From IMG/VR virus record IMGVR_UViG_3300032050_000187, positions 1 through 52,895 of that record: a stretch of 52,895 nucleotides of DNA; one strand, written 5' to 3'. The notes below the pieces were generated by a model. It was not told the DNA's origin, made no database searches, and saw nothing but the letters and a program-made list of their open reading frames with translations. This DNA comes from a virus (taxonomy: Duplodnaviria > Caudoviricetes). This document shows, piece after piece, positions 8,065 through 47,675 of the stretch (position 1 is its first letter; each line of letters opens with the position of its first letter). The position numbers and the translations under genes are program-made.

Positions 8065-8994
8065 TTAAGCGCCTGCGGAACCCCACATGCCGAGGGGATC
8101 AGACCAGCCGAAGCTGTAACGCTCACGAGCCTTGTAACGGACGTTGCCGGTATCAAAGTCACCGTCCATCGAGTTAGCCAGGGGCATACGCTCGAAATGC
8201 TTCATACCGTTGGGAACGTCGGTAATCAAATACCAGCCATTCGAATCGGTCAAGAAGTGGTTGACGCAGTAGCCTTCAGGAATCGCACCCATCTGCTTCA
8301 ACGCGTTGATGTCGTTATCAGCAGTAGAGACACGCAGCTCAGTGTCAAGCAAACGCTTGGCAACGAACATCAGTGCTGGGGGGATGACCATCTTGCGGGG
8401 CTTGGCGGCAATCAACAGACCGCGCTCATCGGTCCATGCAGCGATTTGAATCACGGCATTTTCCAAGGAGGTCTCGTTCAAGTCCACGCCAGTGGTGGGG
8501 CTGTTGAAGTTAACAGCGCCATTAACCAAGGGGTGGCCAACACGAGTGCTGGAGCTGTTGTTACCGAACAAGGTCACGCCGTCACCACCCAAGTACGAAC
8601 CGTTGAAACCGTTGTTGATAACGGAGGCGGCTTTAACTTGCTTGGTGTAGGACATCGCACGGGCCAGGGCTTTGGTGTAACGAGCAGACAGTGAGTCATA
8701 CAAGTTATCTTCCACAGCTTCCTCGGTGATCGAGAAGCCCAGGGCGATGGTTTCGTGGTTGTAACGGGCGGTGAACGCTTCTTGTGCGTTGTCATACGCG
8801 ATGGCGGAGCCCTCGTTCTTGACAGGAGCAGCACCGAAACCAGCAAGCTTGGTCTCTTCTTCGAAGCTACGCTCTGATTTCTCAGTTTCGTAGATTTCTT
8901 TGTGCTCTTCGCCGTAGCGAGCGTATTCCAAACCGAACAAAGCGTTCAGACCAGGGAGCAACTCTTTAAGTAGTTGTGCGCGTGAAATTGCCAT
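8065..8994 (-). CDS. Major capsid protein (Mu gpT-like, HK97 fold)
   Basis: 309 aa; MAISRAQLLKELLPGLNALFG...GFSITEEAVEDNLY...RYKARERYSFGWSD; strong SD TAAGGAG; followed by terminator. Confidence 0.88.
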   Translation of the reverse strand: MAISRAQLLKELLPGLNALFGLEYARYGEEHKEIYETEKSERSFEEETKLAGFGAAPVKNEGSAIAYDNAQEAFTARYNHETIALGFSITEEAVEDNLYDSLSARYTKALARAMSYTKQVKAASVINNGFNGSYLGGDGVTLFGNNSSSTRVGHPLVNGAVNFNSPTTGVDLNETSLENAVIQIAAWTDERGLLIAAKPRKMVIPPALMFVAKRLLDTELRVSTADNDINALKQMGAIPEGYCVNHFLTDSNGWYLITDVPNGMKHFERMPLANSMDGDFDTGNVRYKARERYSFGWSDPLGMWGSAGA

Positions 8995-27327: not shown

Positions 27328-27527
27328 CACCGCCCGTGAAAAACTATGTTCCTCTTGTGCCAGACCACAGACTGGTGGAAGTCATTCGAGGGTATATATC
27401 AGAACGCTCGGACGAAACAACCCGGCCCGATCTCAACAATGAACACCGCTTATTGGAATTGGCAAGGCTGATTACCGATGAGTGCCAAGCAAGAATCCCA
27501 TTGTGGGAATTGGAGAAAAAAGCATGA
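27324..27527 (+). CDS. Hypothetical protein
   Basis: ATGA-coupled, SD GAGGTG. Confidence 0.55.
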   Translation: MTPPVKNYVPLVPDHRLVEVIRGYISERSDETTRPDLNNEHRLLELARLITDECQARIPLWELEKKA

Positions 27528-27736
27528 CACCAACACCAAAACTGCGCTTTATTGAGCGCGTAGTGCCCGCACCTGAACACGGCGAAAACATTGGAAAAAC
27601 TGTTCGCATCCTCCAGCAATGGTGGGAGGACAAAAACATAGTGCTGGCAGTACACATAACCGACAAAGACGGAAACACTTTGCCATCACCCAATCGTGGC
27701 GAATGGCGTGATGTACCACTGGAGACAGAAGCATGA
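27524..27736 (+). CDS. Hypothetical protein
   Basis: MTPTPKLRFIER...RILQQWW...GEWRDVP. Confidence 0.65.
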   Translation: MTPTPKLRFIERVVPAPEHGENIGKTVRILQQWWEDKNIVLAVHITDKDGNTLPSPNRGEWRDVPLETEA

Positions 27737-27903
27737 ACGAATTTAAGTCTGGCTTTGGCCTAGCGCCAATCAAGAAGGAAGGCAGCATTGCTGACCCCGA
27801 TGAATTTACCTGGGAGTGTGACTGCGAAGCCTGTGCGCTCAAGTACCAGAAGTGGAAAGAACGGTTTGACATTCAACAGAAAGAACTGCGAGGTGAGAAA
27901 TGA
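27733..27903 (+). CDS. 56-aa protein with capsid-like N-terminal segment and CxCxxC (not in ORF track)
   Basis: MNEFKSGFGLAPIKKEGSIADPDEFTWECDCEACALKYQKWKERFDIQQKELRGEK; SD GGAG; ATGA overlap at both ends. Confidence 0.7.
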   Translation: MNEFKSGFGLAPIKKEGSIADPDEFTWECDCEACALKYQKWKERFDIQQKELRGEK

Positions 27904-28271
27904 AAATAGAAAAAGAATGGACAACGAAAGCGGGGTTCAAAGCCGAGGTGATTGCCACCGACATGGGGCATCGCTGTGGGTATGTGTCCGTGCCAAAGGA
28001 TCACCCATGGCATGGCAAGACCTACAACGATGTTGACCTTGATGTGCATGGCGGGTTGACCTACGCTGGCATGGAGGATGGCGATTGGTGGTTTGGGTAT
28101 GACTGCGCCCATCTTGGGGATGCCCGTGACCCCGAATTGATGAGCGACGAATACAAAAATGTTTTGCTGGGGAGGAAGCTGAACTTTGATGGCGACACCG
28201 TGAAGACGCTGGACTTCTGTGTAAACGAATGCGAATCAATGGCATGGCAATTGAAGGAGGTGAACACATGA
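27900..28271 (+). CDS. Conserved phage protein (CGYV...VHGGLTY...GYDCAH type)
   Basis: Cys/His motif set suggests metal binding. Confidence 0.75.
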   Translation: MKIEKEWTTKAGFKAEVIATDMGHRCGYVSVPKDHPWHGKTYNDVDLDVHGGLTYAGMEDGDWWFGYDCAHLGDARDPELMSDEYKNVLLGRKLNFDGDTVKTLDFCVNECESMAWQLKEVNT

Positions 28272-28462
28272 CCGCAAAAGAAGAACTTACCAAGCTGCTC
28301 ATGGAAAGCTATGACCAAGGGGTTAAAGACGGGCTTCAAACAATCCTGCAACTCATCAAGGAACTGCGCCCTGCGATCAATCCGCTGGATGGCATGGGCA
28401 AAGGCAAGACCACGCATGAGTGGTTCGACATTTTGGTCAAAGACATTGAGGAGAAGATATGA
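28268..28462 (+). CDS. Hypothetical protein
   Basis: SD AAGGAGGTG, coupled. Confidence 0.6.
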   Translation: MTAKEELTKLLMESYDQGVKDGLQTILQLIKELRPAINPLDGMGKGKTTHEWFDILVKDIEEKI

Positions 28463-28722: not shown

Positions 28723-28937
28723 AAGGTGGAGCAAGACCGGGCAGTGGGCGCAAGCCCACATTGATTGACGAGCGTAGAGCGTTGAGCCTACACAAGCAGG
28801 GCGTATCCATGCGGGAGATTGCCGAGCGGTTTGGTGTTAGCCTACAGGTCATCAAATACTTTTTTAGAAAGCGCAGGAAACAAAATGGCAATGACCCCCG
28901 AAGCACTTGTAAAAAAGAAAGTCAAGCAGTTGCTTGA
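28719..28937 (+). CDS. HTH DNA-binding protein with GGARPGSGRKP arm
   Basis: GVSMREIAERFGVSLQVIKYF helix-turn-helix. Confidence 0.7.
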   Translation: MKGGARPGSGRKPTLIDERRALSLHKQGVSMREIAERFGVSLQVIKYFFRKRRKQNGNDPRSTCKKESQAVA

Positions 28938-29184
28938 CGCCAACGCGGTGTACCACTTCTCGCCTGTGCAAAACGGCATGGGCAGGGCTGGCATACCAGA
29001 CATCATCTGCTGTTACTTTGGCACGTTCATCGCCATCGAGTGCAAGGCGGGCAAGGGCAAGACCACCGCGCTGCAAGACATGGAGTTGGCCAAGATACAG
29101 CAGGCCGGGGGGACGGCACTGGTTATCAACGAGGAGAACATTGAATTGGTAAAACAAACTTTAAAGGAACTGCTATGCGAATAA
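28885..29184 (+). CDS. VRR-NUC / Holliday-junction resolvase-like nuclease
   Basis: PE...GIPDII...FIAIECKAG...TALQ PD-(D/E)XK pattern. Confidence 0.85.
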   Translation: MAMTPEALVKKKVKQLLDANAVYHFSPVQNGMGRAGIPDIICCYFGTFIAIECKAGKGKTTALQDMELAKIQQAGGTALVINEENIELVKQTLKELLCE

Positions 29185-29450
29185 CACAAGAGGACATAGA
29201 ACGCCGAGTGGCATCCATGACCGATGCCCAGAGAGACCACTTCAAAACGCTGGTGTACGCACTGCTCCAGTGCTACGCCGAGGACAAGCACGCTGCTGTC
29301 ATTGTGCTGGGCGACTTGAGCGATGAGAGCGCCAGCGTGGTCACAGTCAACTGCAACGAGATGGATGCCGCCACGCTGCTGCTGGCAGCGGACAACTTCT
29401 TTAACTACATCAACATGCGTGAAGCACCACCCAAAGAGGCCATGAATTGA
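29175..29450 (+). CDS. Hypothetical protein
   Basis: 91 aa, SD AAGGA, overlaps polymerase start. Confidence 0.6.
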   Translation: MRITQEDIERRVASMTDAQRDHFKTLVYALLQCYAEDKHAAVIVLGDLSDESASVVTVNCNEMDAATLLLAADNFFNYINMREAPPKEAMN

Positions 29451-31423
29451 GTAAACCATTTGAACGCGCCATCGTGCTGGACTTTGAAACTGCCTGGGGG
29501 CGCGGCGTGAAGCTGGGCTTTTCTTGCCAGACCATGGAGGAGTACATACGCGACCCCCGCTTCAAGGCGTGGGGAGTGTCTTGGAAAGAGCTTGGCGGCG
29601 AAGCACCCGCAGTATGGGTTAGACGCAGGGACTTGCCCGAGTTCTTCAAGTCAATCGACTGGAGCACCACCGCGGTCATGGCACAAAACGCAGGGTTCGA
29701 TGTGTCGATCATGGAGTGGCACTACAACGCACACCCAGCGTTCATCATGGACACGCTGTCTATGGGCCGGGCACTGCGCGGTGTGGAGGTGGGCAACAGC
29801 TTGGCCAAGCTGGCCAAAGACCTGGGCCTGCCGCCCAAGGGGGACGGGCTGTCGCCATCAGAGAACATACTGGACGAATTGCCTGCGAATGTGGAGGTCA
29901 CGCTGGCTGAGTACTGCTGCCATGACACATGGCTGTGTGAACAAATTTTCTTTGGGCTTGGTGGCTGGGACTACCCCACAAAAGAACTCAAACTCATTGA
30001 CATGACGCTCAAGATGTACACACGCCCAGTGTTGCAGCTTGACCAGCAGATGTTGATACAAGCATTAACAGAGGAAGGAAACATACGTGAAGCGCTCCTA
30101 CAACGTCTTAACATCGATGAGTCTGAGCTGGCGTCAAACCCTAAGTTTGCGCAGATTCTTACAGGCCTTGGCGTTACACCCCCGACAAAAATCAGTAAGA
30201 CCACAGGCAAACAAACGCTTGCCCTGGCAAAAAACGATGCACTCTTCCAAGCCCTCCTCAATGGTTCGAATGAGGATGTTGCGCTCCTTTGCGAAGCGCG
30301 GCTCAAGGTCAAGTCAACAACCGAACGGACAAGGGCACAGCGGTTCTTGGACATCAGCCAGCGTGGTGCGCTCCCGGTTCCGCTTTCGTACTACGGTGCT
30401 CAGACTGGGCGATGGACGGCAGCTAAGGGGTCAGCCATCAACATGCAAAACCTCAAGCGCGGTTCGTTCTTACGTAAAGCGATTATGGCTCCCGATGGCT
30501 ACCAACTCGTTGTCGGCGACCTCTCGCAGATTGAGCCGCGAGTACTCGCGTGGCTGGCTGACTACGACGATATGCTCGACATCTTCCGGGCTGGAGGTGA
30601 CCCTTACGCGGCATTCGGAAGTCAGATGTTCAACATACCCGGCCTTACTAAAGAGTCTCATCCTGACCTGCGGCAATCTGCGAAGAGCGCGTTACTGGGC
30701 TGCGGCTATGGGCTGGGCTGGTCATCGTTCGCGTCACAGCTTCTTACGGGGTTCCTTGGGGCTCCCCCAGTTCGCTACTCGAAAGAGTTTGCTAAAGCAC
30801 TGGGCGTGGACGGAGAATATGCACAACGCTTCCTAGACTGGGATGAGAACGTCAAGAAGCTGGAGGAAATCCCCCACACCTGCACCACGCAAGAGTTGCT
30901 GGTGCACTGCCTTGCGGCCAAGAAGATCATCGACATCTACCGCGCCACTGCGGCCCCTGTCGTGGACTTATGGGGGATGTTTGGCCAGCTTATTGAGAGC
31001 AGCCTGTACAACGGCAAGGAGTACACGCACAAGTGCCTGACCTTCAAGAAGGGGGAGATCGTCTTGCCAAGCGGCATGAGCTTGTTGTATCCTGACTTGA
31101 AGCCCATCAAGGATGACAAGGGCCGGGTGCAGTGGGTTTACGGCCCCGACCAGACCAAGCTATATGCTGGTAAGATAACGAACAACGTCACGCAGGGCGT
31201 AGCAAGATGCGTGATGACAGACGGGATGCTTCGCGTAGCAAAACAGTATCCAGTCAAAGGGACAGTGCATGACGAGCTGATTGCCGTTGTGCCTGACGAT
31301 GAAGTAGCCACCGCTAAGACATGGGTCTTGGCGCAGATGACTATGGAGCCGAAGTATTTGCCGGGGATACCCCTGGCCGCTGACGGTGGTGCGCACCGTC
31401 GTTATGGGTTAGCAAAAAATTAA
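29447..31423 (+). CDS. polA: Family A DNA polymerase with 3'-5' exonuclease
   Basis: Exo motifs LDFET, QNAGFD, YCCHD; pol motifs A DLSQIEPR, B RQSAKSALLGCGYG, C VHDE; TTG start. Confidence 0.93.
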   Translation: MSKPFERAIVLDFETAWGRGVKLGFSCQTMEEYIRDPRFKAWGVSWKELGGEAPAVWVRRRDLPEFFKSIDWSTTAVMAQNAGFDVSIMEWHYNAHPAFIMDTLSMGRALRGVEVGNSLAKLAKDLGLPPKGDGLSPSENILDELPANVEVTLAEYCCHDTWLCEQIFFGLGGWDYPTKELKLIDMTLKMYTRPVLQLDQQMLIQALTEEGNIREALLQRLNIDESELASNPKFAQILTGLGVTPPTKISKTTGKQTLALAKNDALFQALLNGSNEDVALLCEARLKVKSTTERTRAQRFLDISQRGALPVPLSYYGAQTGRWTAAKGSAINMQNLKRGSFLRKAIMAPDGYQLVVGDLSQIEPRVLAWLADYDDMLDIFRAGGDPYAAFGSQMFNIPGLTKESHPDLRQSAKSALLGCGYGLGWSSFASQLLTGFLGAPPVRYSKEFAKALGVDGEYAQRFLDWDENVKKLEEIPHTCTTQELLVHCLAAKKIIDIYRATAAPVVDLWGMFGQLIESSLYNGKEYTHKCLTFKKGEIVLPSGMSLLYPDLKPIKDDKGRVQWVYGPDQTKLYAGKITNNVTQGVARCVMTDGMLRVAKQYPVKGTVHDELIAVVPDDEVATAKTWVLAQMTMEPKYLPGIPLAADGGAHRRYGLAKN

Positions 31424-39918: not shown

Positions 39919-40093
39919 GAGGGGGCAGGGGTTCTTTGTCCCCTGCCTCGATGTGGAACGCACCCGCGAGGAAGGGCTGCGCGAAGCGGTTAAGTGCAGA
40001 TTGAAGGATGCCCGCGCTGTGGTTGGCATCCACCGGGGTTTGATCGGCGTTGTGTTCAGCCGAGGTAACCTCGGGCACTCTCCGCCAGCTTGA
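39887..40093 (+). CDS. Small hypothetical protein
   Basis: YPWQQLERGQGFFVP motif; last rightward gene. Confidence 0.55.
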   Translation: MTIHYPWQQLERGQGFFVPCLDVERTREEGLREAVKCRLKDARAVVGIHRGLIGVVFSRGNLGHSPPA

Positions 40094-43000
40094 TGCGCAG
40101 TTGCTGCAACTTGTCCAGCTCTTCGCGCTTCTTGTCTGGTGTCAGGTTAGACGCTTTGATGGCGTTCATGGCCTTCGTGATGGTGCTCAACTGCTCTTGG
40201 ATGTTGCCCGCCACAGCCCCAGCAGCAATCTCTTTGGAGTTCTTTTGCAAGAACTCTCGGGCCTCAGACATGCGCCCGTCCTTGACCATATCCTTGAACG
40301 TCTTGTCGATCTGCTGAACTTCCTGCATGCGGTCGTATGTGGCACTCACAATACCAGCGGCATCGTTGGGCTGGAACATGGAGCCGATCACAGGCGTATC
40401 GGACAACCGCTTGGTAGCCTGCTCTGGCGTGCCCTTGGGCGGTGAGGGCATGGCAAAGTTTAAGGACTGCGCCAACGCAAGGCCCATTGTCCCGGTGTAA
40501 CCGCGAACCAAGTTTTCAATCTTGAGCGGGGATGTGCCTGTCAGCATACCAATTTGCTTGGCTACTTCAGAAGTGTTGTCGCGGAAGCGGTACTCAGGCA
40601 ACATCTGTTGCTCGGCCCTGGACTCGAGTGGGCGCTCGGTAAAGAACGAGTAGTTGGCCACGTTCTCAATGATGGGCTTGGCCAAGGCAGGCATCAGCAA
40701 GGATGTGCCGCCAGGGATGGTCTGTATGGCGATGCTCTTGAACGCTTTATACGCTTCTTCTGCGCCGCGCTCATTGGCCATGCTGTTGACCAGCGCCTCT
40801 GGGATGCCCTTAAAGATGTAACCAATCTCAAACGGCACCGGGATGCGCAATGGCTCATCCAAGCCTGGGATGCGCACAAAGAAGTTGCCGTACTTTTGCT
40901 CGGGCGTGGCGTTTTTGTACGCTTCATCGTCTTGCATCAGCATGGCGTAGGCTATCGCCGTGCCAGACAAAAGCGCTCCTCGGCGCAGCAACTTGCCCTG
41001 GATGTCCAGGCGCTCGTTCAATGGCATCTTGCCTGTCAAAGCGCGGTAGAGCACATCCAAACTCTGCACCTGTGCGTTGAAGAATGGGATGGCCGTGGAC
41101 AAGAACCGTGCCGATGGTGACAGCCCCTTGCGGTTGAAGTTCATGGATTCCAACGACATGAGCGTGGCTTCCATCTCCGACAAGCCCTGGTTGATGTAGG
41201 AGTTGTACTGGGCGCGGCGGGTTGCCGCGTCTGCCTCCATTGCAATACCTTCGGCACGGGCCACCAGTTGGCTCAAGCCCAGCTTGCCGTCTTGGAAATC
41301 TTTGAGGATGCGGGTCAGGTCTTCGTTGGTGCCCGTGAACACTTGCCCACCCGTGATACCCCTGGCTTCCAGCTTCTCTTTGGTGGCCGAACCGCCCAAC
41401 TGACGGATAGCGCCCATGATTGGGGTGAAGTTTGCGCCAGACAGTATGGGCGCAGCCACTGAGTCGCGGAACAACTGCCTGACTGGGTACAACGGACTGA
41501 GCATGACACCCTTGCGCACCATCGTGGCTGCGTAGCCCATGGCCCGGACAATTGCAGAGTTGTTGACGGGGATACCCGCCATGCCCTTGACCAGCAAATC
41601 CGCTGGGATACCTGTCTTGTCGGTCTCCACCAGCACGTACTTGTCTTCGCCCTTGAGTTTGAAGCTGACCACATCAGGGCCAGAAGTCGGGCTGATGAAG
41701 CGCCCCAAGCCCATGTCCACCAGATCAATCATGGTGTTTTTGGTAGCTTGGTTGCGCAGCGCAGCGTCCAGCAGCACCGATGTGTTCTGCACAGAACTGG
41801 TCAGGAAGTCGTAGATTTTCTGGTCGCCGCCAATCAACTGCTGCAACTGGGGCTGGTCTTTCAGGTTGCCCACCTTGAACGTGCCCTCGCCGCCAATCAC
41901 CAGTTCAGCGTTGCCGTTGCGCTCTCGGTAGTACGGGATGTAGTCGTTGGTTGCGGCCAGACGCTTGGCTTCCTCTGGGGAGAGAGCGCCTGTGTCTTCC
42001 ATGAACTTCATCAAGGAGCGGTTGTACTCGTTGTACTGCTTACGCGCCTTTTCAAACACGGCCTTGACTTCCGGATTGCTGTCGATCTGGCTTGCCGCAC
42101 GCTGGATTTGCTCTTTGGAGATGCCGTAGTTGAGCTTGTCGTAGCCCACGTTGGGGTTCTCTGCGCGTTTGTTGGCCAGATACAGCGTGAACAAGCGGTT
42201 GGCTGCTTCGGCATTCATGCCAGGAGCGCCCTTGAGGGTCTCGACAACGCCTGCCAGATTCGGTCCTTCCACGCTTTCAATGAGCTTTTCAATCTGCCCA
42301 TCAGCCCGCTTGTGGTCAACCAACTGGGGCACACCACGGGCCACCGACTGCTGCACAAACGACATCTTCTGGTCGGCCATGCGCAGGTAGTACATCATGC
42401 GCGTACCCTTGAATGGGTCGGCCATCTCACGGGCAATCTTCTCCAGCGGAGCCAAACGGTCAAGCCATTGTGTGCGCCCAGCCAACCCCAGGTTGGACTG
42501 TATCTGCTGCCCGATGCTCTTAGGTTTGGCAATCAGTTGGTCGGTTGTGGCCAACGCGTCTTCAAAGCCGGGAGCCTTGGCGGTGCGGTACGTGGCTTCG
42601 CCTGTGGCAGCTTCGCCGCCTAATGCTCCCACACCTTCTTGCACATACTTCCGAGCGTTGGCCACGATCTGGCGTACCTCGTTGTCAGTAACGCCTTTGA
42701 CACCAAATGTGTTGCTGAACCACTGCTTGATGGTTTCAAACAAACGACGCAACGCACTGCGACTGTCTGCGGTAGGTTCGGCACCTGTCTCGGCCATGTC
42801 GGCCAGCACTTCCTCAACGGCCACTTCGCGGGACAAATTCTTGTTGGCCCCCATCTTGGCATCAGCTTCACGGCGCACCGTGACGTTGCCGTCGTACAAA
42901 GAGTTCATGGTCTTGGCGTATGTACCGCCAAGCATCTCGCGCAGGCCGAAGTGGCCAGCCACTTCGTGCGCAATCGTCAAACCAACGTCATTGCCTGTGT

Positions 43001-46000
43001 GCAAGTTGGATGCCACTAAATACACGGTCTTGGTGTTGGGGTCGTACACGCCGGGGATGCGCCCAGTAACGCCGTCCTTGGCGGCTTGGTCTTGAATTCG
43101 CTGTGGCAGCTCCGACTCGTTCTCAACAACACTGACTTCAGGCGTAATGGCCCAGTCACTTAAGATGCGGTCAACCAAGCGCTTGACTTGTTGCGACTGC
43201 ATGCCGGGGCCAGCCTGGATGGAAGTGCGGAACACGCCCTTGCGTTCTGCTTTAAGTTCCAAGTTTTCTTCAGCTTCTTTGGCCTTGGTGTATGTCAGCG
43301 TAGCGGCTTTGGCTGCGCCTGTCACCTTGGATTGCCGTTGCCGCAAAGCACTGAGCGTGCCTTTGAGCGTGGCTTCTTTGGCTTCCAAGTCTTTCATCAA
43401 CGGCGTGAGTTTGCCCTTGACCTTGGCTTTGCCTGTACTGCGCAGGAACTGCATGCGCCGTTGAACGTCTGCCAAATCTGTGTTGACCTTCATCAAACGG
43501 TTGGTCACCGCAACGCCAACTTCTTCCAACGACACCTGTGGGCGTGGCTGTGTAACGCGAGACCCCAAAACTTCTTTTACCAGCGACGCTTGCTTAACAG
43601 GCTTGAGCTTGGGGGCTTTCTCGCCTTTGGCTTTGCGCCGCCTTGCGGCCACCACGGCTTCTGCCGCAGCGCGTCTGTCTTCGGTGTCTCTGCGTGCTTC
43701 TTCATCTTCCCGCGTCCGCAATTCAGTCTTGACCAACGGCGCGTTCTGGAACACGTTTTCCAGTTTGCTTTCTTGATCGGCAATCTTTTGCCGCAGCTCT
43801 GCCTTGGTGTCTTCGTTTGTGGCCTTGTCCAGTTGATCGTTCAAGCTGCCAATAGCGCGGCGAATCTTGGACATCTCCTGGCGCATCTGCGTGGTGTCTT
43901 TCTCCAACCGCACGCCTTCCAGCCCCAGTCCCTCACGCCCACGCTGCGCAGCTTGGCGCAACCGGGTTTCTTCTGCCGTGGCTTCTTGTTCGGCTCTGCG
44001 CTTTTCAGCTTCTGCCCCGGCCTTCTCAACACGTTCAGCCTCACGCTTTTCTTGCGTAACCTTATCCAGCTCAGCTTTGGCTTCGTCCGCTTCTACCTGG
44101 GCCTTCTCAAACTCTTTAAGTGCGGGCTGAGCAATATCGGTGTACGCTTTAATCTCTGCGCCAATCTGTGCCGCCAAATCTTCCAGCGGAGTAACAACGG
44201 CTTCTAGGTCAGCTAGTTTTTTACGCAGTGCAGGTTCTTGCGCCAACAGGTTGTTGATCTTCAACAACGTGCGCATGTCTGACGGCTCTTGCAAAACTGC
44301 CGCTTTTACGTCATCAATTTCCCGCAACGCTTGCTGCAAAGGAACAATGTGTTCGTTGCGTGCATCTTGGGCTTCTTGACGAACCGCTTCCAGATCGGAG
44401 CGCATCTCGTCTTTCCAACCCAACGCCAGAGCGCCTGTTTCCCGCGCCTTCTTGACCTGCTTGTCGTGCTTGGTTTTGGCGGCGTTGTATCGGTTTGTGA
44501 TGGTTGGCAGCGCTTTACCAACGGACTGCAATGCGGCCAAGTTGTCTGCGCGTTGTTTTTGAATGGCATCGCGCATGCCCTGAACGTCTTTGGAGTCCAG
44601 CAGCTTTTGAAAATTCGACGGCGTGGCACGCGCCACTTGTGCCCCGGCTTCGGGGAACATCTCAAGCTGTGGCTGGGCTTCTGTGTTCTTTGTGCGGGTC
44701 TTGCCTTCTAAGTCAGTGAAGGTTAACTTCTCACCCCTGGCAACCGCAGCGGTCTCTTCTTTTGACAACGGCGCTGCCGCGCTGCGTCCCGACACTTCCT
44801 GCGCCTTGAGCATCTCGCCCAGGTCACGCACAGCAAACGGGTTGGGCAGGTTGCCTTCGGCCACCATGGTGGCTTGCTCCCGTGCCAAGGAGATGAACTC
44901 GGGGTCGTTGGTGGTCTCCAACGCATCCCGCAACCGGGTCAACAAATCAACGGTGGCAGCGTCTGCTTTGGTTGGAGTGCCTGTTGCAAGAAAGCCAGGG
45001 TTGGTGTTGCCCGACACTTTGGCAGCTGCTAATATTTTGGCCAAGTCCGCCAGAGTGTTTGCTTCTTGTTTCTCTAAAACAGGTGCCGCACGGGTGCGCG
45101 TCTCGGCACTGCGCAACACCATCTCAATCACATTCAACGCACGTTGCTTCTCAGTCTTGGCTTCGCGTGGTTCTCCGCGCAGCGTCAGCTCATCAGGCGC
45201 AGCAATCCGTGGCCCCGCACCGCTGGGCTTCTTGGTCTTGCCTTCAAGATCGACTTGGCCCTGCTCTAACATCCGCGTAGCGGCATTTTGCAAGTTCTGG
45301 TAGACGGCATCCCGTGTTTGACCTTGCAGCACTTTGACGGCTTGGGCTGGCGCACCAAATGTGCCGTAGCGGCTTTCCAACTCATTGAGCGCTTCCAAAG
45401 AACGGGCACGGGCTTCGGCCTTTTCCCAGTCGGCCATCTCAGGCAAACCAAACGCTTTGCGTCGCGCTTCAATCTCGGCGGCATGCGCAACTACAAAGGC
45501 TTCTTTGGCTGCGCTGATCTGTGCTTCACGTTTGGCAGGCAAAACCAGTTTGCCAGTGCGTGCCGTATCCAGTGTCTTAATCAGCCCAAGCAACTGTATG
45601 CGCTGGGTGTCAGCATGCTGATCGGCAGCGGCTTCTTGTGCCCGCTCTTCAGGCAGCATGCCTTCTTGTAATTCACGCGTAAGTTTTCCACGACCTTCCA
45701 CAGCCCCTTGCTCTTTGGCTGTGCGCATCTCCGTGAGCAACGCTTCTTGCGTTTTACGGTCCCTTGTGATGCGTGCAATCTGAAATTGCGTCTGCAAGTC
45801 TTTAAGGTTCTGGGATGGCGATGCGCCAACACCTTCAACAACCCGCCCAGGGGTAATGCGCCCATTGGTCAACGGCAGCGTCTGAATTAACTGGTCAACC
45901 AGGGGCATTTCTTCTGGTTTCTCGGGCGTCTCAATGATTTCCTGCTGCTTCGACGGGAACCGCTCAGACAGCAGCTTTCCAGTATCACTGGCATAACCAC

Positions 46001-47675
46001 CTTCGGGCAACACCACACGACCCGGCTCCTGGCCCAAACGCTGGATGCCCAGACGCTCAGGGGCCACACGACGCGCAATTTCTGCGTCTTGTGCAATGCG
46101 CTCTTCTTCGGCTCGTTGGGCTTCCAACGCTGCTTGCTCTTCATCCTCAACCGTTTCTAAGCGAACTTCTTTGGCTGCGGTGGTGGCTGCGGCCCCTGCT
46201 TGTTTGCTTTGCTTGAGGCTGGCGTTGACCTTAAGCTTGAGCTTGTTGTACAGCGCGTCGGTTTTTGTGTCGCTCAAACCGGGGATGGGCGGGCGCTCTT
46301 CAACCAGCTTGCTGGCCTGCGCCGTATCGCGCATCAAGTACCCTAGCACATCCTCTGTGGTGAACCCATACGGGCGGTTCTGCGCGGCTTGAATCTGCGA
46401 CACAGCGTACTGCTGCAACGGTGACAGAGGCTTTTCCGTCTCGGTCGGACCTTCGCCCAGGCGGTTGATGAAGAACTCTTCAGCGCTTGGCTGGGGTCTT
46501 TCTGCGGGGATTTTGGCCCCTTGCTGGTCAAGGAAGAACTCCTCGGGAGTCATTGCCTTGACGCGCTCGTACTCTGCCTGTGCCTTGGCACGCTCCTCGG
46601 CTTGCGCTTCGTACTGCTTCAAAAACGCCGCCTGCTCCTTGGCCAGCCGTGCGGCTTGGTCCTTGGCTGCTTTGGCTTGCTTTGCAGCTTCTCGCTTGGT
46701 TGGCTCTGCAACCGCTTCCTCTTCTTCAGGCGCTACTCCTGGCACACGCAAGGTGGGTTCGGGAATGGCCTCGGCTTCGCCAAGGGCGGGAGGAACAAAG
46801 GCTTCGGGGGTTTGTGCAGTTGGCTGCGCCGCTACTGCGCCAGCAGCGGCTGGGCCTTTGGCACGGCGACCAATGGCCATGTCAAGCAGACCTTGAACCA
46901 ACGCGCCAGTAGCACCGCCGTATGCAGCGGACTCGCCCACCTGCTCAATGATTGCTTGCTCTGGTTTGTAGATGCCTTTGGCAATCAAGTTCTGGGCAAC
47001 TTGTGATGCGGCTTCTTGTGCAGCTTCCTCGCCACCTGCCGTCAGTGCTCGTTTAACCGCAGCAACAGCACCTGCTTGTACGGGAGCCGCCAAACGTCCA
47101 AGAATCCTGGCCGGGGCAAACATCTCTGTTAAACCCACCGCACTGCCAAGACCAGTAGCTAAAGACCGTTGATCTGCGCTTGCTTCGCCTTGTTCAGCCC
47201 TTACTCTGGCCTCACCCGCGCCAGCACCGACACCCAGCCCGGCCATGCCCACACGCCCTGCAACACCCAACGGCCCCATGGCCAAAAATGGCGCAACAGA
47301 ACCAACCGATTCGCCGAGCTTTCGCCCGACAGTCTCTTCGTACCCAGGAGCGGCAGCAAACGGTTCGCGTGCCGAAGCCGCCAAACTGCTGATTGTTTTG
47401 CGTGCAGAACGTTCTTGCTCGTCGGGCAGCAGCGCGGACAGACCCGTGCCAGCCGACTCTGCCAAACCAATAGCGCCAGGGACAAGACCCTTGGCAAACT
47501 CTTTGATCTGGCCCCCAACGGTTGGGGTTTCTTTGGGTTTTTCTTTTTTGGTGTCGTCTAGCGTATCGCCTTCGGCGATCATGCCCCTAGCAATTTGAGC
47601 CAAGCGTTTTGCTGCTTCGGTGTCTCCAGCAGCATCGGCATTGCGGAGTGCTTGAAAAACTTGGCTCAGTTCCAT
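40056..47675 (-). CDS. Giant internal virion/ejection polyvalent protein with zincin-like and LPD38 domains
   Basis: 2539 aa; Gly/Ala-rich N-terminus, long coiled coils, GVYD...AHEVAGHFGL...EEVLA, C-terminal RIPVPFEIG..FK.IPE...ANYSFFT.RP. Confidence 0.8.
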   Translation of the reverse strand: MELSQVFQALRNADAAGDTEAAKRLAQIARGMIAEGDTLDDTKKEKPKETPTVGGQIKEFAKGLVPGAIGLAESAGTGLSALLPDEQERSARKTISSLAASAREPFAAAPGYEETVGRKLGESVGSVAPFLAMGPLGVAGRVGMAGLGVGAGAGEARVRAEQGEASADQRSLATGLGSAVGLTEMFAPARILGRLAAPVQAGAVAAVKRALTAGGEEAAQEAASQVAQNLIAKGIYKPEQAIIEQVGESAAYGGATGALVQGLLDMAIGRRAKGPAAAGAVAAQPTAQTPEAFVPPALGEAEAIPEPTLRVPGVAPEEEEAVAEPTKREAAKQAKAAKDQAARLAKEQAAFLKQYEAQAEERAKAQAEYERVKAMTPEEFFLDQQGAKIPAERPQPSAEEFFINRLGEGPTETEKPLSPLQQYAVSQIQAAQNRPYGFTTEDVLGYLMRDTAQASKLVEERPPIPGLSDTKTDALYNKLKLKVNASLKQSKQAGAAATTAAKEVRLETVEDEEQAALEAQRAEEERIAQDAEIARRVAPERLGIQRLGQEPGRVVLPEGGYASDTGKLLSERFPSKQQEIIETPEKPEEMPLVDQLIQTLPLTNGRITPGRVVEGVGASPSQNLKDLQTQFQIARITRDRKTQEALLTEMRTAKEQGAVEGRGKLTRELQEGMLPEERAQEAAADQHADTQRIQLLGLIKTLDTARTGKLVLPAKREAQISAAKEAFVVAHAAEIEARRKAFGLPEMADWEKAEARARSLEALNELESRYGTFGAPAQAVKVLQGQTRDAVYQNLQNAATRMLEQGQVDLEGKTKKPSGAGPRIAAPDELTLRGEPREAKTEKQRALNVIEMVLRSAETRTRAAPVLEKQEANTLADLAKILAAAKVSGNTNPGFLATGTPTKADAATVDLLTRLRDALETTNDPEFISLAREQATMVAEGNLPNPFAVRDLGEMLKAQEVSGRSAAAPLSKEETAAVARGEKLTFTDLEGKTRTKNTEAQPQLEMFPEAGAQVARATPSNFQKLLDSKDVQGMRDAIQKQRADNLAALQSVGKALPTITNRYNAAKTKHDKQVKKARETGALALGWKDEMRSDLEAVRQEAQDARNEHIVPLQQALREIDDVKAAVLQEPSDMRTLLKINNLLAQEPALRKKLADLEAVVTPLEDLAAQIGAEIKAYTDIAQPALKEFEKAQVEADEAKAELDKVTQEKREAERVEKAGAEAEKRRAEQEATAEETRLRQAAQRGREGLGLEGVRLEKDTTQMRQEMSKIRRAIGSLNDQLDKATNEDTKAELRQKIADQESKLENVFQNAPLVKTELRTREDEEARRDTEDRRAAAEAVVAARRRKAKGEKAPKLKPVKQASLVKEVLGSRVTQPRPQVSLEEVGVAVTNRLMKVNTDLADVQRRMQFLRSTGKAKVKGKLTPLMKDLEAKEATLKGTLSALRQRQSKVTGAAKAATLTYTKAKEAEENLELKAERKGVFRTSIQAGPGMQSQQVKRLVDRILSDWAITPEVSVVENESELPQRIQDQAAKDGVTGRIPGVYDPNTKTVYLVASNLHTGNDVGLTIAHEVAGHFGLREMLGGTYAKTMNSLYDGNVTVRREADAKMGANKNLSREVAVEEVLADMAETGAEPTADSRSALRRLFETIKQWFSNTFGVKGVTDNEVRQIVANARKYVQEGVGALGGEAATGEATYRTAKAPGFEDALATTDQLIAKPKSIGQQIQSNLGLAGRTQWLDRLAPLEKIAREMADPFKGTRMMYYLRMADQKMSFVQQSVARGVPQLVDHKRADGQIEKLIESVEGPNLAGVVETLKGAPGMNAEAANRLFTLYLANKRAENPNVGYDKLNYGISKEQIQRAASQIDSNPEVKAVFEKARKQYNEYNRSLMKFMEDTGALSPEEAKRLAATNDYIPYYRERNGNAELVIGGEGTFKVGNLKDQPQLQQLIGGDQKIYDFLTSSVQNTSVLLDAALRNQATKNTMIDLVDMGLGRFISPTSGPDVVSFKLKGEDKYVLVETDKTGIPADLLVKGMAGIPVNNSAIVRAMGYAATMVRKGVMLSPLYPVRQLFRDSVAAPILSGANFTPIMGAIRQLGGSATKEKLEARGITGGQVFTGTNEDLTRILKDFQDGKLGLSQLVARAEGIAMEADAATRRAQYNSYINQGLSEMEATLMSLESMNFNRKGLSPSARFLSTAIPFFNAQVQSLDVLYRALTGKMPLNERLDIQGKLLRRGALLSGTAIAYAMLMQDDEAYKNATPEQKYGNFFVRIPGLDEPLRIPVPFEIGYIFKGIPEALVNSMANERGAEEAYKAFKSIAIQTIPGGTSLLMPALAKPIIENVANYSFFTERPLESRAEQQMLPEYRFRDNTSEVAKQIGMLTGTSPLKIENLVRGYTGTMGLALAQSLNFAMPSPPKGTPEQATKRLSDTPVIGSMFQPNDAAGIVSATYDRMQEVQQIDKTFKDMVKDGRMSEAREFLQKNSKEIAAGAVAGNIQEQLSTITKAMNAIKASNLTPDKKREELDKLQQLRIKLAESARGYLG

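Follow-up and report, generated by a model that had tools for sequence, protein, structure and literature searches.

A phage mini-protein that carries a module resembling a capsid E-loop tip, and a tentative case for capsid mimicry

The mini-gene and its surroundings

The window analysed here, the whole of IMG/VR virus record IMGVR_UViG_3300032050_000187 (52,895 bases, estimated completeness 83%), contains a small gene at 27733-27903 for a mini-protein of 56 amino acids (aa), P0001, whose N-terminal part resembles a loop of the major capsid protein encoded in the same window. The full translation of P0001 is MNEFKSGFGLAPIKKEGSIADPDEFTWECDCEACALKYQKWKERFDIQQKELRGEK, and the gene has the following features.

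27733..27903, plus strand: mini-protein gene (P0001, 56 aa), in the replication/early block, upstream of the DNA polymerase gene at 29447-31423
27721..27724, plus strand: GGAG, Shine-Dalgarno-like, read from the sequence, 8 nucleotides (nt) 5' of the ATG
27748..27801, plus strand: E-loop-tip-like module, codons 6-23, SGFGLAPIKKEGSIADPD, from BLASTP, hhalign and family conservation
27817..27834, plus strand: CDCEAC, codons 29-34, three conserved Cys and a possible metal site, from the alignment of 60 sequences
27826..27891, plus strand: amphipathic/charged helix, codons 32-53, predicted by AlphaFold2

An earlier reading of the DNA, made from the letters alone (the sequence-only reading), had described a Shine-Dalgarno sequence, ATGA overlaps at both ends of the gene, and a CDCEAC motif followed by a charged helix, and each of these holds. 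The GGAG is in place, the ATG overlaps the TGA of the open reading frame (ORF) 27482-27736, the TGA overlaps the ATG of ORF 27900-28271, and the AlphaFold2 helix at residues 32-53 follows the Cys motif. The same plus-strand block contains a VRR-NUC-like ORF (28819-29184, PHROG 'endonuclease') and the 658-aa DNA polymerase ORF (29447-31423), and this block, with the mini-gene and the DNA polymerase gene, stands opposite the structural block. The mini-gene is probably expressed early; we call it 'early' because of its gene position only.

The mini-protein family

The frame at 27733-27903 encodes a real, conserved mini-protein under purifying selection. Ten near relatives of P0001, 78-93% identical, were found in a collection of 5.8 billion proteins, and when 1.84 billion cluster representatives were searched by phmmer without a word index, 59 proteins scored E ≤ 1e-3 (20 of them E ≤ 1e-10), the lengths of the 59 being nearly all 38-118 aa. 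The resulting 60-sequence alignment has the consensus FGxAPIKxEGxIADPDxxTWECxCxKCxxxYxxWK, and the residues of the module are conserved in 51 (F8), 50 (G9), 46 (A11), 48 (K14), 58 (E16), 57 (G17), 59 (P22) and 57 (D23) of the 60 sequences. C31 is present in 60/60, and C29 and C34 in at least 90%, several members having His at the C29 position (WEH...). When IMG/VR was scanned for DNA encoding DPDxxTWEC, a pattern that leaves the module motif free to vary, 30 stretches were obtained; all 30 belong to the mini-protein family, and all 30 bear an FGxAPxKxEG-type segment with unchanged spacing. The ratio of non-synonymous to synonymous substitution rates (dN/dS, Nei-Gojobori) is 0.145 for the mini-gene, calculated from 71 close pairs among 28 distinct gene sequences, and the two parts of the gene have similar values, 0.135 in the motif codons and 0.137 in the remaining ones. 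The sequence-only reading had asked whether a GFGxAPxKxEG-type segment is kept in stand-alone small genes: with 59 representatives and a dN/dS of about 0.14 it is, and with 30/30 stretches carrying the segment and a motif dN/dS of 0.135 there is neither a lack of homologues that keep it nor neutral decay.

Pfam contains no family that matches P0001 at E ≤ 1, and the search of PHROGs likewise gave nothing. A tblastn search of 50,697 phage records with P0001 returned four matches at E 3-9, and these were rejected, one lying inside a 270-aa protein (H1) and another in an unconvincing frame (H3).

In some family members (the 150-aa frame of L053, P0031 and P0050), the mini-protein is fused to an uncharacterised domain, DDDIQDYKKPWVxLTDEE..., and elsewhere this domain is a separate ORF directly upstream of the mini-gene (L064:6487-6738, L045, L055, L057). 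Pfam and PHROGs searches with the fused or longer members and with the upstream-domain ORF gave nothing usable.

The capsid protein and its E-loop tip

The protein to which the module is compared is encoded in the minus-strand part of the window.

8065..8994, minus strand: major capsid protein gene, 309 aa, HK97 fold, gpT-like, from Pfam, tblastn and a structure model
8791..8844, minus strand: E-loop tip, capsid residues 51-68, AGFGAAPVKNEGSAIAYD, from the capsid alignment and the model

The capsid protein matches Pfam PF25209 Phage_capsid_4 at 2.4e-11 (44.9 bits, cutoff 27) and PF10124 Mu-like_gpT at 4.3e-5, and it is 70% identical to the annotated major capsid protein of Planktothrix phage Pag-Yong1 and 61% identical to the capsid protein of pelagiphage HTVC023P. 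A PDB sequence search with it gave 0 matches. In 54 capsid homologues that are 55-85% identical to that of the window, G52, F53, A56, K59, E61 and G62 are invariant and D68 is conserved in at least 90%.

An AlphaFold2 model built from the 54 sequences has a mean predicted local distance difference test (pLDDT) value of 75, and it shows, in this order, a helix at 5-20, a strand at 36-39, a stretch at 43-76 with pLDDT < 50, a strand at 81-90, and a long helix at 98-127. Foldseek aligns the model with the capsids of the gene transfer agent (GTA), phiXacJX1, D3 and HK97 at E 3e-8 to 1e-7. The elements of the HK97 fold follow each other as N-arm, E-loop and spine helix, and because residues 51-68 come after the N-arm helix (5-20) and before the spine helix (98-127) in this order, they are predicted to be the exposed E-loop tip; this is a topological assignment in which the tip is modelled with low confidence. 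The sequence-only reading had placed the segment at nt 8797-8844 and, tentatively, in the E-loop of the HK97 fold. Its coordinates are correct on the minus strand, where they encode capsid residues 51-66, AGFGAAPVKNEGSAIA (the plus-strand reading gives a different sequence), and the capsid model agrees with its placement, as it puts these residues in the 43-76 stretch between the N-arm helix and the spine helix.

Capsid homologues with 54-83% identity also occur on contigs binned into metagenome-assembled genomes (MAGs) of many unrelated phyla, such as Methylopumilus, Nanopelagicales, Chloroflexota, archaea and others (L075-L154). These look like phage contigs that were swept into the bins, and the host can therefore not be read from them. 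One of the capsid frames, in L124, contains an in-frame stop.

Sharing of the module between the two families

The gapped alignment of the mini-protein with capsid residues 51-66 has the 11 identities over 16 columns that were originally noted, with one gap; the ungapped alignment of mini-protein residues 6-23 with capsid residues 51-68 has 10/18 identities. BLASTP gives the pair 26.2 bits and, for a single comparison, E 3e-5 (16/42). The comparison was extended to the two families. The conserved F, A, K, E, G and D of the mini-protein family recur with the same spacing in the 54 capsid homologues, where they are invariant or conserved in at least 90%. In a search of the other 80 window ORFs with the mini-protein family profile, the capsid protein comes out on top (E 0.0098), a score reached in 2 of 100 shuffled proteomes, and hhalign of the family against 12 capsid proteins, which were drawn from tblastn hits with the motif disregarded in the choice, gives P 6.7e-4 and a probability of 27% over 23 ungapped columns.

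A scan of IMG/VR with a DNA pattern for G-F-G-[L/F]-A-P-I-K found at least 118 stretches, and 116 matches were examined. In 95 of these 116 matches listed, the 8-mer occupies the E-loop-tip position of a full-length capsid frame; another 5 lie in capsid frames truncated by the locus end, 10 in the mini-protein family and 6 elsewhere, so that 110/116 represent the capsid tip or the mini-protein. The GFGLAPIK-clade capsids among the matches listed are 32-47% (median 39%) identical to the window capsid, and the 8-mer is followed by xEG in 41/95 and by xQG in 45/95 of the full-length capsid frames listed. In 4/15 genomes of this clade, the mini-protein profile matches the capsid E-loop tip with a per-genome E of 0.005-0.025; a further match of the profile, in G041, was spurious, as its frame lies opposite a 142-aa ORF.

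The coinciding conserved positions, the 8-mer scan and the profile matches in the clade are the family-level evidence because of which we judge that the E-loop-tip module is shared non-randomly by the mini-protein and capsid families. The distribution of the genes points in the same direction. All records with the mini-gene that are at least 90% complete also hold this capsid type (8/8; 4/4 in each of two sets). In the second record set as a whole, a full-length capsid match was found in 6/13, the other seven records being 26-89% complete. Among them, record G007 (89% complete) has the mini-gene without a capsid match, which is uninformative as the structural block of this record extends up to the end of the contig.

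Other small open reading frames built from capsid pieces

A search with the capsid profile in the mini-gene-bearing records gave two short extra matches in early-block ORFs, P0191 and P0192, and a third protein, P0195, was found through the 8-mer itself.

L061:6777-7016, minus strand: P0191, 80 aa, between the VRR-NUC-like and DNA polymerase genes, begins MMPMTRADILKALLPGLNKLFGAEYAK
L057:11506-11820, minus strand: P0192, 105 aa, two genes downstream of the mini-gene, with the Tat-like (twin-arginine translocation-like) start NRRGFFGAMLAAAMAPAIV
L022:9893-10225, plus strand: P0195, 111 aa, directly upstream of the terminase large-subunit gene

The first 27 residues of P0191 match the capsid N-arm (65% over 26 residues, E 1.9e-7), and the rest of the protein is unrelated; an exact-word scan of IMG/VR for relatives of P0191 found only P0191 itself. 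In P0192, it is the C-terminal ...LTRQQLLDELLPELNKLFGLEYSK that matches the N-arm (61% over 28 residues, E 3.7e-6), and the protein also has a weak match to PHROG 8778 (5e-4). A recent DNA copy is unsupported for these N-arm ORFs, the best of 70 capsid 5' ends being about 60% identical at the nt level. Among the window proteins of at least 150 aa, the capsid protein is alone in having partial copies of this kind that no locus end truncates.

P0195 consists, in L022/L023, of a Tat-like leader followed by GGFGLAPIKAEGASVAYDY and then RYASALAKSLMQTKEQV. Its family (alignment A6) comprises 29 proteins of about 84-131 aa with a Tat-like leader, an optional tip module, a spine-helix-like RYAxALARSMMQTKE segment, and a conserved SGEGARRSVGVEGSPDRI tail; the leader matches Pfam TAT_signal below threshold, and 9/29 members have GFGLAP[I/L]KxEGAS[I/V]AYD or a near variant. 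A6 is homologous to capsid residues 40-132 (hhalign 97.4%, E 1.2e-11, 78 columns; HMMER 8.6e-7 on the window capsid). P0001 and P0195 match in BLASTP with 35 bits and E 3e-9 (17/50, ungapped), the signal lying entirely in the module, and hhalign of the mini-protein family against the motif-bearing A6 subset gives 82% and E 1e-5; both values are to be read with the caution that P0195 had been selected by the 8-mer. The same comparison with the whole of A6 gave no match and is uninformative, as the motif columns are insert states in A6. One A6 member is labelled 'phage portal protein BeeE' by its source, probably wrongly.

Of the 11 records with A6-type genes, 7 contain a full-length capsid gene too (E 1e-103 to 1e-126), and several contain further small ORFs that match positions 1-26, 47-72, 134-176 or 274-297 of the capsid profile. 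These ORFs, of 90-206 aa, were found in L164, L167, L170, L171 and L176 (records G019 and G021-G024); in some of them the tip precedes the N-arm, in permuted order, and the full-length capsid gene is also present where the record is long enough. Taken as sequence matches, these cases show that related phages appear to build small ORFs from exposed capsid elements repeatedly. In the window itself, the 77-aa ORF 28229-28462 (plus strand), two genes downstream of the mini-gene, has an N-arm-like stretch, LQLIKELRPAINPLDG versus QLLKELLPGLNALFG, whose match is not significant (23.1-23.5 bits, E 0.12-0.67).

Predicted structure of the mini-protein

The AlphaFold2 model of P0001 (m857b2fca65e8) has a mean pLDDT of 84 and consists of the helix 32-53 preceded by a confident coil, in which residues 11-30 lie beside the helix with a pLDDT of about 90. 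Structure comparisons found no counterpart: a Foldseek search of the PDB had no match at E ≤ 10, the best Z in VIA-align among 48,161 chains was 3.9, with none above 5, and the ESM Atlas returned unnamed clusters only, with scores of 0.80 or less. A PDB sequence search with the 25-aa motif stretch had 0 matches.

The three Cys, the first of which is replaced by His in some members, suggest a metal site, and no fourth conserved Cys/His ligand was identified in the 60-sequence alignment. The sole match of the family profile in the PDB, to Get3 ATPases, is not significant (E 0.18). Residues 28-53 of P0001 and the start of the Zn-binding CXXC helix of Get3 are similar in layout, with Cys at the helix N-terminus.

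Proposed function and alternatives

Our comparisons show that the N-terminal ~14-18 residues of the mini-protein are, as judged from sequence, the same module as the E-loop tip of gpT-like HK97-fold capsid proteins. Either the mini-protein inherited the module from a capsid fragment that was captured, or strong convergence produced it. We infer that the module is kept because it is doing its capsid job, namely engaging a partner. The reading that we favour is competitive mimicry of free capsid protein, with a scarce host sensor of capsid protein as the most likely partner, and we hold it tentatively, at a probability of roughly 0.45. The mini-protein would display the E-loop-tip epitope and compete with newly made, unassembled capsid protein for whatever binds the E-loop tip. 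The likeliest partner would be a low-abundance host factor that senses free capsid protein, and a decoy made ahead of capsid gene expression could occupy such a sensor without activating it. A second candidate partner would be the E-loop docking surface of capsid subunits. A complex prediction for the capsid protein and the mini-protein, run without controls, scored 0.01 against a mark of 0.32, which speaks neither for nor against binding.

Several findings weigh against mimicry, and they are set out here together with the alternatives on which they bear. The single-pair match inside the window is borderline and does not rise above the background: in an all-against-all BLASTP of the 81 window ORFs the pair ranks first at 26.2 bits, with the next pairs at 25.8, 23.9 and 23.5. 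The HMMER capsid profile misses P0001 at E < 1 among 12,338 six-frame fragments (0.9 million residues), and the family profile gives the window capsid an E of 1.6 in the same fragments. Moreover, G, A, P, K and E occur commonly in loops. The likeness might therefore be a chance resemblance of two short loop-like sequences rich in these residues, as the marginal lead of the pair (26.2 vs 25.8 bits), the hhalign probability of 27%, and the HMMER E-values near 1 in 0.9 million residues would suggest. However, the conserved positions of the two families coincide, 110/116 of the 8-mer matches listed belong to the capsid tip or the mini-protein family, and the matched capsid family is that of the very phages that carry the mini-gene, and we consider chance disfavoured to the point of being very improbable.

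The next points concern what is not shared. The DNA encoding the two segments is identical at 28/54 positions, and the third codon positions agree at 5/18 (3/10 among identical residues), so there is no DNA-level identity. The third-position agreement of 5/18 rules out a recent DNA copy of the capsid segment into P0001. The sequence-only reading had spoken of a copy of a capsid segment; what survives of this is a capsid-type E-loop module at the family level, and what does not is recent copying. Beyond the ~14-18-residue module there is no similarity, as the tail of the family gives hhalign P 0.37 with capsid residues 69-135 and P 0.2 with the capsid-fragment family A6, and with these values for the tails (0.2 and 0.37), P0001 as 'tip + spine helix' is ruled out as well. 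The module thus appears to be mounted on a small Cys3 and helix scaffold that is, by sequence comparison, unrelated to the capsid protein.

The structure model adds a further reservation, as the module in P0001 is a confident coil (pLDDT about 90) in which no hairpin is called; the module may therefore be packed into the structure and not displayed as a loop. This leads to an alternative in which the tip sequence was captured, or arose by convergence, as a self-folding turn that packs on the Cys3/helix scaffold and serves an unrelated job, for example in a small metal-binding protein that regulates or inhibits a replication or transcription factor, either of the host or of the phage. We regard it as a possible explanation, with odds below even. 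Residues 11-30, with a pLDDT of about 90 beside the helix in the P0001 model, are below 50 in the capsid monomer model; the genes around the mini-gene are replication genes (VRR-NUC-like ORF, DNA polymerase); the motif varies independently of that in the phage's own capsid protein; the Cys positions are conserved as strongly as the motif; and some members are fused to the uncharacterised DDDIQDYKKPW..LTDEE domain. All of this would fit such an exapted module. However, an unrelated job leaves unexplained why exactly the capsid-invariant residues are fixed over 60 divergent representatives, and why small ORFs from other exposed capsid pieces occur repeatedly in related phages.

The remaining reservations come from the distribution across genomes. 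No co-variation of the mini-protein motif with the capsid motif was seen in 10 related genomes, in which the mini-proteins have GFGLAPIK[K/R/M]EG, GFGPVPLKREG or KFGDAPIK[M/R]EG, and the capsid proteins have GF[G/S/N]AAPVKNEG or GFGSAPVKTEG. In sequence, the mini-protein motif (GFGLAPIKxEG) is less like the tip of the phage's own capsid protein than like that of another capsid clade, which is very abundant. Furthermore, the mini-gene is absent from 11/11 isolated or annotated phages with related capsids, in a search whose positive control on the own genome gave 1.7e-29, and from 15/15 records of the GFGLAPIK capsid clade.

These observations bear on an alternative in which the target is the capsid itself. 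The module would dock on the capsid surface that normally receives the E-loop tip of a neighbour, and either delay premature assembly of the phage's own capsid or poison assembly or maturation in co-infecting phages of the GFGLAPIK clade. That the motif is identical to the tip 8-mer of the other abundant clade and unlike the GF[G/S/N]AAPVKNEG of its own lineage, and that the mini-gene was not found in the 15/15 records of the GFGLAPIK clade, would fit such interference. In addition, a capsid-fragment gene adjoins the terminase gene in L022 (one locus inspected), and capsid homologues that redirect assembly are known from satellites, as is reported of Ccm of SaPIbov5 (PMC8569155). On the other hand, a short loop would hardly bind tightly, the product of an early mini-gene would have to be as plentiful as the late protein that is made in the largest amount, the binding is conjectural, and the difference from the own capsid motif may be plain drift. 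Assembly interference is improbable in our view.

Extended to the other capsid-derived ORFs, competitive mimicry of capsid protein leads to a broader proposal, which we consider rather unlikely as it stands. Phages with gpT-like capsids (the HTVC023P-type group and relatives) would carry a previously undescribed class of accessory mini-proteins, made from exposed capsid pieces, that act as 'capsid-epitope' mimics by blinding immunity that senses free capsid protein or by sabotaging the capsids of competitors. The pieces in this class would be the E-loop tip (the 56-aa family), the N-arm (P0191 and P0192), and the E-loop with the spine helix behind a Tat-like leader (A6), and no member of the class would be more streamlined or more widespread than the mini-protein of the window.

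Comparison with known systems and significance

Among known proteins, the closest likeness is to the gpT-like HK97-fold capsids (PF25209/PF10124), which have G-F-G-x-A-P-[I/V]-K-x-[E/Q]-G ... D with the same conserved positions and, in a large clade, the exact 8-mer with xEG. P0001 differs from them in its length of 56 aa, in its single helix (32-53), and in having no N-arm, P-domain, A-domain or Pfam match. The A6 proteins resemble P0001 as small stand-alone phage proteins, 9/29 with the tip module or a near variant. In contrast to P0001, they have a Tat-signal-like N-terminus (MKRRxFIxGAVAAAVSAALP), which is absent from P0001 and the 60 representatives, a spine-helix-like RYAxALARSMxQTKExV segment homologous to capsid residues 103-130, and an SGEGARRSVG tail, both of which P0001 lacks, and in L022 the gene is next to the terminase gene.

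In the T4 Gol/Lit protease system, what a defence reaction recognises is a short stretch inside the major capsid protein; Gol acts within the capsid protein itself and not from a separate mini-gene. Other precedents come from satellites and from capsid-sensing immunity. Ccm of SaPIbov5, which the satellite encodes, is reported to be homologous to the capsid protein of the helper phage and to redirect the assembly of capsids (PMC8569155). It is likewise a capsid-derived product that acts on capsid biology outside the normal capsid gene, an action that is hypothetical for the mini-protein; Ccm is, however, a full-length HK97-fold protein encoded by a satellite, whereas P0001 presents a ~15-18-residue module in a mini-protein of the phage itself. 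CapRelSJ46 directly senses the capsid protein Gp57 of SECphi27 (PMC9712102), and a second reported trigger is the small protein Gp54 of Bas11 (PMC11578894). According to these reports, an immunity protein binds free capsid protein directly and a small phage protein engages the same sensor; Gp57 and Gp54 are described as disparate, both activate, and an inhibitory capsid-like decoy is not among what is reported there. No CapRel-type system is linked to the phage of the window. Full-text literature searches, supplements aside, turned up no account of phage mini-proteins that consist of pieces of capsid protein.

Capsid proteins are direct triggers of bacterial immunity, which raises the question of how phages protect a signal that they cannot avoid and that they express strongly. 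A conserved mini-gene with a capsid loop sequence suggests that phages reuse capsid pieces as molecular mimics, and the mini-protein and its sister families from other capsid pieces provide a concrete hypothesis that is testable with cloned genes, as well as a sequence signature for virome mining, namely capsid-fragment ORFs outside the capsid gene. Should its function have nothing to do with the capsid, the mini-protein would still clearly exemplify how a piece of a structural protein can be exapted to found a new family of small proteins, here in aquatic phages that are very abundant.

Further observations

The downstream neighbour of the mini-gene, the 123-aa ORF 27900-28271 (plus strand), matches PHROG 2164 at 8.7e-28 and, more weakly, a MazG-like pyrophosphatase PHROG at 9.7e-10. 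In the minus-strand block, the window contains a very large ORF at 40056-47675 (2539 aa), and record G007 has a 3358-aa counterpart of it with 28% identity over 684 residues.

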